From Rhodocyclaceae bacterium (lineage in GTDB: Bacteria; Pseudomonadota; Gammaproteobacteria; Burkholderiales; Rhodocyclaceae), in contig JAUXOM010000031.1 in the NCBI GenBank assembly GCA_030682175.1, positions 1,112 to 65,111 on the forward strand: DNA of 64,000 nucleotides. The letters are read 5' to 3'. The notes under the pieces were generated by a model. That model did not search any database, was not told the DNA's origin, and saw nothing but the letters and a program-made list of their open reading frames with translations. Position numbers and translations under genes: made by a program. Shown piece after piece: positions 24,876 to 26,856 of this stretch (positions are counted from its first letter, which is position 1; each line of letters begins with the position of its first letter).

Positions 24876-26856
24876 GCAGATGATGTGGCAACCGTCGGCG
24901 CAGCGTATCGCCGCCGCCAATCTGACCGAATTTGCCCGGCAGGCAACGACGCGCTTCGGTCGCCGTTTCACCAGTCCCACGGGGATTTCCTTCGGTCACG
25001 CCGACTATTTTGAATTGCATCGCTGGTCGGTCGATCATCCCGCAGAGTTCTGGTCGCTGCTCTGGGACTTTGCGGAGGTGCGCGGCACGAAGGGTGATGT
25101 GGTGCTGGCTGATGGCGACAAGATGCCCGGCGCGCGCTGGTTCCCCGCGGCGCGGCTGAACTACGCGCAGAACCTGCTGCGGCGGCGCGACGAGGACACG
25201 GCGCTGGTGTTTCGCGGCGAGGAAAAGGTGACGCGCCGCATGACGCATGGTGAGCTGTACTTGCGCGTCGCGCGGCTGGCGCGGGCGATGCGCGGCGAAG
25301 GCGTTGTCGCGGGCGATGTCATCGCGGCCTATATGCCCAATTTGCCGGAAACGCTGATCACCCTGCTCGCCGCGTCGTCCATCGGCGCGGTGTTCACCTC
25401 CGCCTCGCCGGATTTTGGCGTGCAGGGGGTGCTTGATCGCTTCGGCCAGGTGGCGCCCAAACTGCTGTTCGTCGCCGACGGCTATTTCTACAACGGCAAG
25501 ACACTCGACTCGCTCGACAAGGTGGCGCAGATCGTGGCCGGTCTGCCCTCGGTGCGGAAGGTCATTGTCTCGCCCTATGTGCATGAGACTGGCCATGAGT
25601 TGTCCCACATTCCGAATGCCGTGACGCGTGGCGATTTCGTCGCGCCCTGGCGCGCCGAGCGCGAAATCGAGTTCACGCAACTGCCTTTCGATCACCCGCT
25701 CTACATCCTGTATTCCTCCGGCACCACCGGCGTGCCGAAATGCATCGTCCATGGCGCGGGCGGATCGCTTCTGCAGCACCTCAAGGAACATCGCCTGCAG
25801 GCCGACATCAAGGCCGGCGACAAGGTGTTTTACTTCACCACCTGCGGCTGGATGATGTGGAACTGGCTGGCGTCGGCGCTCGCCTCCGAGGCCACGCTGC
25901 TGCTCTACGACGGCTCGCCCTTCGTCGGCCGCGGCCGGGTGCTGTTCGACTACGCGCAGGCCGAAGGCATGACGCACTTCGGCACCTCGGCCAAGTTCAT
26001 CGACGCCTGCGCCAAGATCGAGCTGAAGCCGCGCGCGACGCACGACCTGGCGCCGCTGCGCGCGATGTTTTCCACCGGTAGCCCGCTCTCGCCCGAGAGC
26101 TTCGACTACGTCTATCGCGACATCAAGCCCGACCTGCAACTCGCCTCGATCTCGGGCGGTACCGACATCGTCTCCTGCTTCGTGCTCGGCAACCCGCTCG
26201 GGCCGGTGTGGCGCGGCGAGATCCAGTGCGCCGGCCTCGGCATGGCGGTCGATGTCGTCGATGAAAACGCCAAACCCGTGGTGGGCGAAAAGGGCGAGTT
26301 GGTGTGCACGCGTCCATTTCCTTCGATGCCGGTCGGCTTCTGGAACGATCCCGACGGCGCGAAATACCGCGCCGCCTATTTCGAGCGTTTCCAGGGTATC
26401 TGGTGCCACGGCGACTTTGCCGAGAAGACCGCGCACGCTGGTTTCGTCATCCATGGTCGCTCGGACGCGACGCTCAACCCCGGCGGCGTGCGCATCGGCA
26501 CTGCGGAAATTTATCGTCAGGTCGAGAAGTTGCCCGAGGTGCTGGAATCCATTGTCATCGGCCAGGACTGGGAAGACGATGTGCGTGTCGTGCTGTTCGT
26601 CAAGCTGCAGGACGGACTCACGCTCGACGAGGCGCTCGCCAAGCGCATCAAGGAAGCGATTCGCGCCAACACCACGCCGCGCCACGTGCCGGCGAAAGTC
26701 TTGCAGGTGGCCGACATTCCGCGCACCAAGAGCGGCAAGATCGTCGAACTGGCCGTGCGCGAGGTGGTGCATGGCCGCGCTGTAAAGAACCGCGAGGCGC
26801 TGGCAAACCCCGAGGCACTTGAATACTTCCGCAACCGGGCAGAACTCGCCAAGTGA
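24868..26856 (+). CDS. Acetoacetyl-CoA synthetase
   Basis: [51 protein letters not shown]. Confidence 0.93.
24961..25010 (-). repeat. Core motif with 24-nt insert inside acetoacetyl-CoA synthetase gene
   Basis: Reverse complement AAATAGTCGGCG[TGACCGAAGGAAATCCCCGTGGGA]CTGGTGAAACGGCG. Confidence 0.85.

Follow-up and report, generated by a model that had tools for sequence, protein, structure and literature searches.

Why does the acetoacetate-CoA ligase (AACS) of a Rhodocyclaceae bacterium carry, close to its N-terminus, a short run of residues for which its relatives have no counterpart, and what is the origin of the DNA that encodes it? The gene in question (24868-26856, + strand; 662 residues, intact) lies in a window of 64,000 nucleotides (nt), that is, the whole stretch of contig JAUXOM010000031.1 (assembly GCA_030682175.1) analysed here, to which coordinates refer unless another contig is named. 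Sequence comparison identifies the extra residues as the translation of a 24-nt member of a family of tiny dispersed modules, 21, 24, or 27 nt long, each size of which is all but restricted to a single fixed junction within a 25-nt motif found throughout the genus. We are rather confident of the explanation as a whole, namely that the AACS insert is a motif-nested dispersed module, that such modules would spread from filled to empty copies of the motif, and that the AACS copy is probably a neutral passenger. The assembly to which the window belongs (G000; 3.49 Mb, a draft of 153 contigs with an estimated contamination of 4.45%) was compared with other sampled genomes of the same genus, designated by further G numbers, 24 genus genomes being considered in all.

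The inserted 24-mer, TCCCACGGGGATTTCCTTCGGTCA, lies in frame in AACS at 24975-24998 (+), is identical to the consensus of the module type termed M2a at 24 of 24 positions, and encodes, with the adjoining bases, (S)PTGISFG(H). It is bracketed by the two arms of the 25-nt motif: on the left, at 24961-24974 (+), stands CGCCGTTTCACCAG, which matches the consensus CGCCGTCCCGCCAG at 11 of 14 positions and encodes RRFTS, and on the right, at 24999-25009 (+), stands CGCCGACTATT, which matches at 10 of 11 and encodes ADY, residues conserved across the enzyme family. Once 24975-24998 is cut out, the sequence runs cgc cgt ttc acc ag|c gcc gac tat, read as RRFTSADY. Of the six reading frames of the module, only one, a reverse frame that begins with TGA, contains a stop codon. 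A further copy occupies 26889-26912 on the same DNA strand (+) with one mismatch, and a third lies at 20582-20605 on the − strand with three; no match to the 24-mer was found in 100 shuffles. The initial annotation, made from the letters of this DNA, had described 24961-25010 in just this way, including the protein that remains once the module is removed, as an inserted module that is open on both strands and that differs by one base from a copy read on the opposite strand in rlmJ, and its description holds in each of these respects, the 26889-26912 copy being read antisense because rlmJ is encoded on the − strand and the eight residues being missing from orthologues without the module.

The evidence that the segment was added to the protein comes from the wider enzyme family, relative to which the extra stretch amounts to 10 residues, eight contributed by the module and two by the surrounding 25-nt motif. 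In an alignment with 30 orthologues of other genera, drawn from the alpha-, beta-, and gammaproteobacteria, AACS positions 35-44 are residue-free in all 30, positions 28-34 and 45-49 on either side are occupied in 28-30 of them, and the solved Streptomyces structure 4WD1 is likewise without the inserted residues. Within the genus, the identical 24 nt are found at the same AACS codon in G000, G021, and G015, the last of which has a perfect left arm, and the AACS of G022 has the motif in uninterrupted form (CGC CGT CCC GCC AGT GCC GAC TAT, read as RRPASADY); several further genus genomes have motif-like or shorter linkers at this site, where the motif occupies the linker that joins the first N-terminal helix to the conserved DY..LHRWS segment. 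On these alignments, the AACS stretch is a true insertion of a repeat-family module and not ancestral protein sequence, and what the module entered is a copy of the 25-nt motif already present in AACS, not ordinary coding sequence.

The AACS copy is a well-documented instance of the module family rather than a separate phenomenon. In G000, the 24-mer has 53 copies at up to three mismatches, compared with none for the reversed pattern, and the three module sizes are represented by 54 copies of 24 nt (at up to four mismatches), 37 of 27 nt, and 121 of 21 nt, the reversed controls giving 0, 0, and 1, respectively. The same two arms, CGCCGTCCCGCCAG and CGCCGACTTTT, enclose 47 of the 54 24-nt copies, and 82 of the 91 modules of 24 or 27 nt sit at the CCAG^CGCC junction of the motif (CGCCGTCCCGCCAG^CGCCGACTTTT), the 27-nt variant being distinguished at this shared junction by a longer loop (GAAAAR for ACG). 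Most copies of the 21-nt module occupy a different fixed junction, CGCCGT^CCCGCCAG, and ~20 of the 121 genome-wide are in tandem; in the window, two such modules stand in tandem within one motif at 35415-35456. Tandem modules of 24 or 27 nt were not seen in G000. About a third of the modules (75 of 212), and 28 of the 54 24-nt copies, lie in genes, the latter using their frames 17, 7, and 4 times; the frame that starts with TGA is used by none of them, against ~3.7 expected from the frame usage of the motif (P ~0.02). Across the genus, the 24-nt family is abundant in only five of the 24 genomes, with 36-53 copies in each.

As to the form of the module, 84 of 110 candidate sequences, gathered with a relaxed pattern that includes some chance matches, retain a hairpin stem, TCCC/GGGA, the loop varying in both length and sequence. 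Membership of a known RNA family was considered and set aside, a scan of window positions 18000-28000 with Rfam, at E values up to 1, having returned one match at chance level. Strand preference was assessed by local GC skew, which gave counts of 21 versus 11 for the 24-mer, 179 versus 188 for the 25-mer, and 918 versus 935 for genes; because the genes themselves show no co-orientation with the skew, this proxy is uninformative in the draft assembly. The module with its junctions is absent from the viral contigs searched in IMG/VR. Of the viral contigs, 45 (L227-L271) contain the exact 23-nt motif core, mostly once in each, an observation that is uninformative as to a vector. The 25-mer is not printed in the searchable literature, and the partial matches to the 24-mer found there are irrelevant vector or promoter sequences.

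The motif that receives the modules is far more abundant than the modules themselves. Joined without an insert, the arms give a 25-nt sequence with ~650 copies in G000 at up to five mismatches (three in the reversed control), ~75 of them exact; at up to three mismatches, one strand has 255 copies and the other 281, with none in the reversed control. With the central 11 bases as a seed, exactly 25 positions prove informative and the sequence beyond them does not. Twenty-three of the 24 genus genomes have the motif, in 74-650 copies distributed equally over both strands; of 16 genomes from other families of the order, 15 lack it and the remaining one has 4 weak copies. By our own gene caller, 347 of 602 copies lie in genes, compared with 85% expected for random sites; these copies are spread evenly along the length of the proteins, their frames are strongly skewed (134, 98, 51, 46, 12, and 6), and in sampled orthologues the peptides that they encode are mostly gap-free relative to the corresponding residues of G011, a genus member without motif copies at up to three mismatches. 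Few copies (7 of 602) form inverted terminator pairs. In its behaviour, the 25-nt motif resembles an uptake sequence and not an insert. A variant form with T for C at the first position makes up nearly all copies in G005. Further copies in the window include those at 13254-13278, 59485-59509, and 30299-30323, the last of which fills nearly the whole spacer between a stop codon and the ATG of the next gene.

Motif and modules change at very different rates, as estimated from 0.8-1.2 Mb of two relatives, the comparison with G024 covering 800 kb whose flanking sequences are ~90% identical to those of G000. Sixty-eight of the 78 mappable motifs of G024 (87%) are also motifs in G000, and five more correspond to motifs interrupted by a module in G000; modules common to the two genomes number only 3 of 25 mappable (12%). 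Orthologous motif copies diverge by 5.3% between G000 and G024, compared with 11.4% for their flanks, and by 6% between G000 and G022, compared with 19.7%. The motif is the stable layer, its divergence being between a half and a third of that of its flanks, and the modules come and go roughly ten times as fast, as clean insertions and deletions of 21, 24, or 27 nt.

Other filled sites of the window illustrate this turnover. The second filled motif (26875-26923, +), which consists of the arms and the M2a module at 26889-26912, lies antisense in the C-terminal tail of rlmJ (26857-27846, −), the gene for 23S rRNA methyltransferase J (PF04378 at 229 bits over residues 64-309 of 329, the module lying beyond the end of the Pfam domain), where it is translated as KVGVTAGNPRGTGWTA; the site is an empty 25-mer in G022 and G021, with a gap of exactly 24 nt. 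The diverged M2a copy at 20582-20605 is antisense and in frame in a GGDEF/EAL gene (20242-22707, +), and the corresponding genes of G021 and G015 are without exactly those 24 nt. An intergenic composite at 18388-18499 (−) combines one motif with both a 21-nt (M1) and a 27-nt (M2b) module, and the relatives display its stepwise states, the site being empty in G015 and G021, occupied by the 27-mer alone in G024, and occupied by the 21-mer and the 27-mer in G000; modules can accordingly accumulate stepwise in one motif. With further exact gaps in relatives at the 21-nt module at 44951 and at C91:15595 (27 nt), and two further genes elsewhere in the genome that are filled in G000 and empty in a relative, exact gaps of 21, 24, or 27 nt are found at at least eight orthologous sites. 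At the sites compared, filled and empty states differ by exactly the length of the module and no target duplication was found. The 3' half of the motif is also a landing site for bigger repeats: at 5288-5312 (−), where the window has a degenerate motif in a gene, G015 (L113/L121) carries an insertion of ~300 bp made of larger CCCCCCACGCTCGCAA... elements and bounded by duplicated CGCCGACATT, and G022 carries another insert there.

How old is the copy in AACS? The initial annotation had called the insertion recent, a dating that has to be abandoned in view of the identical 24 nt shared by three species whose AACS genes differ by 12-19%. In the gene tree, (G000, G021) and (G015, G020) form one clade with 99/99 support, G022 and G019 with their empty motif falling outside it, and a single insertion in the ancestor of the clade, with the segment later lost or replaced in G020, would fit this topology. 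In a search of 5.8 billion proteins, of which the 120 best representative hits and the two closest 90% clusters were examined, the insert is confined to those two clusters, where SPTGISFG(H/D) is present in all eight full-length members, derived from NCBI, JGI, and ENA assemblies labelled Rhodocyclaceae bacterium. The uninterrupted site of G022 represents the empty state, and neither the 120 best representative hits nor the two closest clusters contained an empty allele of the lineage that carries the insert. By these comparisons, the AACS module is an old, fixed member of its family, and it is probably neutral for the enzyme. Against the high turnover of the family, it is also unusually stable: across the three-species subtree, whose summed branch lengths are ~0.22 substitutions per site, its 24 nt show zero changes, compared with ~5 substitutions predicted, and the adjoining left arm has changed at ~5 of 14 positions across the same species. 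The AACS gene has, moreover, recombined between species. The AACS of G024 (L006) falls in a gene-tree clade that differs from the one suggested by its neighbouring genes, and the proteins P0004 and P0131 join a G015-type N-terminus to a G000-type continuation.

The host protein offers a setting in which such an insert could be tolerated. The gene product matches TIGR01217, an equivalog-level profile, at 945 bits (cut-off 521), and 4WD1 matches it over residues 4-641 with an E value of 7e-166. The N-terminal 30 residues are conserved with homologues, which places the start codon upstream of the insert. An AlphaFold2 model built on an alignment of 31 sequences has a mean pLDDT of 87.6 and a pTM of 0.88; in it, residues 31-46 form a coil between helices 18-30 and 47-56, and residues 37-43 (PTGISFG) have pLDDT values below 50, being one of only two such segments in the model. 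Since every residue that is invariant in the family is present in the G000 protein and the model is confident, with the insert in a coil, the enzyme looks functional, and the insert itself looks like a tolerated surface loop. Tolerance would follow from a length that is a multiple of three, a frame without stop codons, and a disordered surface location far from the catalytic motifs. Relatives with an empty motif, or with none, retain an intact enzyme.

Any account of how the modules spread has to include copying from a template, since 24 identical bases cannot arise independently 54 times, and the data further require precise gain and loss at a fixed junction without duplication. The mechanism that we favour, at somewhat under even odds and hence tentatively, treats the modules as non-coding passengers that would pass from filled to empty motif copies by template-directed short-patch copying, for which no dedicated transposase would be needed: single-stranded DNA of a filled motif, available during replication or transformation, would anneal through its 14-nt and 11-nt arms at another copy of the motif. 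Such copying would resemble SPDIR, the short-patch double illegitimate recombination of Acinetobacter, in which integration is driven by microhomology (bioRxiv 10.1101/2023.11.22.568220). It is favoured by the near-exclusive nesting of the modules in the motif, by the lack of tandem 24- and 27-mers, and by the fact that neither an enzyme that tracks the modules nor a distinctive structure was found. The bolder proposition that the modules are a new kind of enzyme-less mobile DNA, housed in an uptake-like motif and jumping among its ~650 copies by annealing of single-stranded arms, seems to us rather unlikely. There are also points against the explanation that we adopt. The route of spread is one that we infer; the arms, at 14 and 11 nt (6 and 19 nt for the 21-nt module), offer very little length to guide copying by homology; five copies of the 24-nt module lie elsewhere, at ACGCTCG^CAA inside a larger repeat in which the motif arms are absent; and the division of copies into genic and intergenic rests on our own simple gene caller (3179 genes, 87.6% coding). 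The folding energies of the hairpin are no better than those of shuffles (z from -0.65 to +0.6), for which reason we claim no structure-driven mechanism, and its stem, being invariant, shows no covariation. In AACS itself, the left arm shows decay, with 3 to 5 mismatches, while the module has been perfectly conserved, which is not what continuing arm-guided conversion predicts and hints at some constraint. The conservation is not attributable to the protein alone, because it extends to synonymous positions; this motif may have been filled more than once, or the nucleotide sequence itself may be under constraint.

Nearly as probable as such copying, though on balance doubtful, is that the modules are non-autonomous elements moved by a site-specific enzyme acting in trans, for instance an HUH/Y1 'peel-and-paste' transposase of the IS200/IS605-RAYT kind, which would cut them out exactly and place them on the 3' side of a short target in the motif; what probability remains we leave to other mechanisms. 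Such an enzyme would account for exact junctions, perfectly restored empty sites, and the absence of target duplication, as well as for the 24-mer in its second context without motif arms; the tandem 21-nt modules would be expected from repeated insertion after CGCCGT, although tandems of the 24- and 27-nt modules were not seen. Copy numbers are alike in the five module-rich genomes (36-53) even though most positions differ, and four of these genomes, G000 with three genes, G021, G015, and G024, contain Y1_Tnp genes; yet G008 has 36 modules and no Y1_Tnp match, several module-poor genomes have Y1_Tnp genes as well, and of the Y1 genes of G000, one lies between its own GTAG-type repetitive extragenic palindromic (REP) sequences and another beside a different inverted repeat, none being flanked by modules. 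The hairpin, moreover, has only 4 bp and is thermodynamically undistinctive, and an element of 21-27 nt is, to our knowledge, smaller than any known substrate of HUH/Y1 enzymes. A specific link to RAYT was rejected, as Y1_Tnp genes do not track the modules across the genus and modules do not flank these genes. Much less probable, in our judgement very unlikely, is an adaptive change of the enzyme, in which the eight residues would form a new interaction or regulatory loop kept by protein selection and their repeat origin would be incidental. Fixation of the insert in three species and eight database proteins would suit that reading, as would the unchanged 24 nt beside a changing arm; however, the conservation extends to synonymous positions, the peptide is modelled as low-confidence coil, unrelated proteins use two further frames of this module, about half of whose copies are intergenic, and relatives with an empty motif or none keep the enzyme intact. 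That the segment was never inserted, being either ancestral sequence deleted elsewhere or an artefact of assembly or binning in a metagenome-assembled genome, we consider so improbable as to be negligible: G000 is indeed a draft in many contigs with some estimated contamination, and repeats can misassemble, but separate assemblies of three species, as well as proteins recorded at NCBI, JGI, and ENA, have the same 24 nt at the same codon, the reading frame is continuous, the flanks are syntenic, and the residues are lacking in every one of the outgroup orthologues.

Two of the Y1_Tnp genes of G000 deserve description in their own right. At C7:83500-84300, a RAYT-like gene lies between classical REPs with a GTAG head and a GTCGGGC...GCCCGAC hairpin, and this REP/RAYT system is separate from the modules. 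At C122:8650-9480, a second gene lies between the inverted arms GGGGACAGACCACGGTTT and AAACCGTGGTCTGTCCCC together with the 25-nt motif, and versions of this element without a gene, composed of an arm, a motif variant, and an arm, occur elsewhere, including window positions 3920-4000 (~3950); the C122-type elements look like a REPIN-like family built around the motif.

What emerges is a two-layer system in a betaproteobacterial genus, in which a stable, uptake-like 25-nt motif would serve as the landing pad of tiny modules. Repeat modules translated in frame in housekeeping enzymes are rare in bacteria, the Rickettsia palindromic elements (RPEs) being the best-known case, and we know of mobile units of only 21-27 nt from no organisms other than the Nostocaceae among the cyanobacteria. 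The AACS copy is a clean example, combining a well-known enzyme family, a solved homologue, relatives with an empty site, and an expressible protein, and it makes testable both how proteins tolerate such inserts and what moves the modules. Should the motif prove to be an uptake sequence, signals of this kind would extend beyond the Neisseriaceae and the Pasteurellaceae, and transformation would be linked to the diversification of protein loops. Should enzyme-less jumping prove true, loops of 7-9 residues would be continually added and removed across the proteome, because the motif sits in hundreds of genes in stop-free frames.

It remains to place the two layers among known systems. RPEs are palindromes of ~100-150 bp, and the modules depart from this size and palindromy, being 21-27 nt long with a 4-bp stem and targeted to one fixed junction in another repeat. 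Their likeness to RPEs, which are known as in-frame repeats in protein genes (MITE review PMC10969869; PMC1779305), is limited to the tolerance of extra peptide segments in frame in genes, including those of housekeeping enzymes. REP and REPIN elements, which are associated with RAYT transposases and are short, abundant, non-coding, and intergenic, imperfectly palindromic over 20-40 nt and conserved in their 5' tetranucleotide (PMC3116915), share with the modules their shortness, abundance, non-coding character, and proposed mobilisation in trans, and Y1_Tnp genes do occur in this genome; the modules differ in having no GTAG head, in having only a 4-bp stem, and in the location of 28 of the 54 24-nt copies in genes, and what flanks the three Y1_Tnp genes of G000 is other repeats, or no repeat at all. 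The modules are also unlike miniature transposable elements with inverted repeats (MITEs), in that their ends, TCCCAC... and ...GGTCA, are not inverted repeats and no target-site duplication accompanies them. A further parallel is the landing of insertion sequences in host repeats, as when IS1397 targets the palindromic units of BIMEs (PMC94167) and REPs serve as insertion sequence targets (PMC1525189), both as cited in PMC3116915; in these cases, too, a mobile element lands safely in a high-copy host repeat, but full insertion sequences encode a transposase and make target duplications, whereas the modules encode nothing and make none.

For the 25-nt motif, the apt comparison is with the DNA uptake sequences termed DUS in the Neisseriaceae and USS in the Pasteurellaceae, whose signatures in coding regions have been described (PMC2817400, PMC3630211). 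The motif is like these in its hundreds of copies, its equal strands, its restriction to one genus with a variant form in one genome, its few preferred frames, its mostly gap-free peptides relative to a motif-free relative, and its better conservation than the flanks; it differs in being informative at all 25 positions, compared with 9-12 core bases, in its density of ~1 per 5 kb, compared with ~1 per 1 kb, and in its scarcity of inverted terminator pairs. No uptake sequence outside these two families turned up in the literature searched. For the modules, the nearest analogue, and an analogue at most, would be the small dispersed repeats SDR4-6 of the Nostocaceae, which are dispersed, near-identical sequences of 21-27 nt with no known enzyme (Elhai et al. 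2008, Genome Res 18:1484, as cited in PMC3116915 and described in PMC5861425), and of which SDR5 is reported to use HIP1 as its insertion site (PMC5861425). Set beside the SDRs by description, the modules differ in their betaproteobacterial host, annotated 'Rhodocyclaceae bacterium', in a host motif that is 25 nt long and non-palindromic where HIP1 is an 8-bp palindrome, and in lengths that are all multiples of three, about a third of the copies being translated in frame. The likenesses are a length of 21-27 nt with many dispersed near-identical copies (54, 37, and 121 here), presence or absence at orthologous sites, perhaps a small stem-loop, and nesting at a fixed place in another hyper-abundant short motif.

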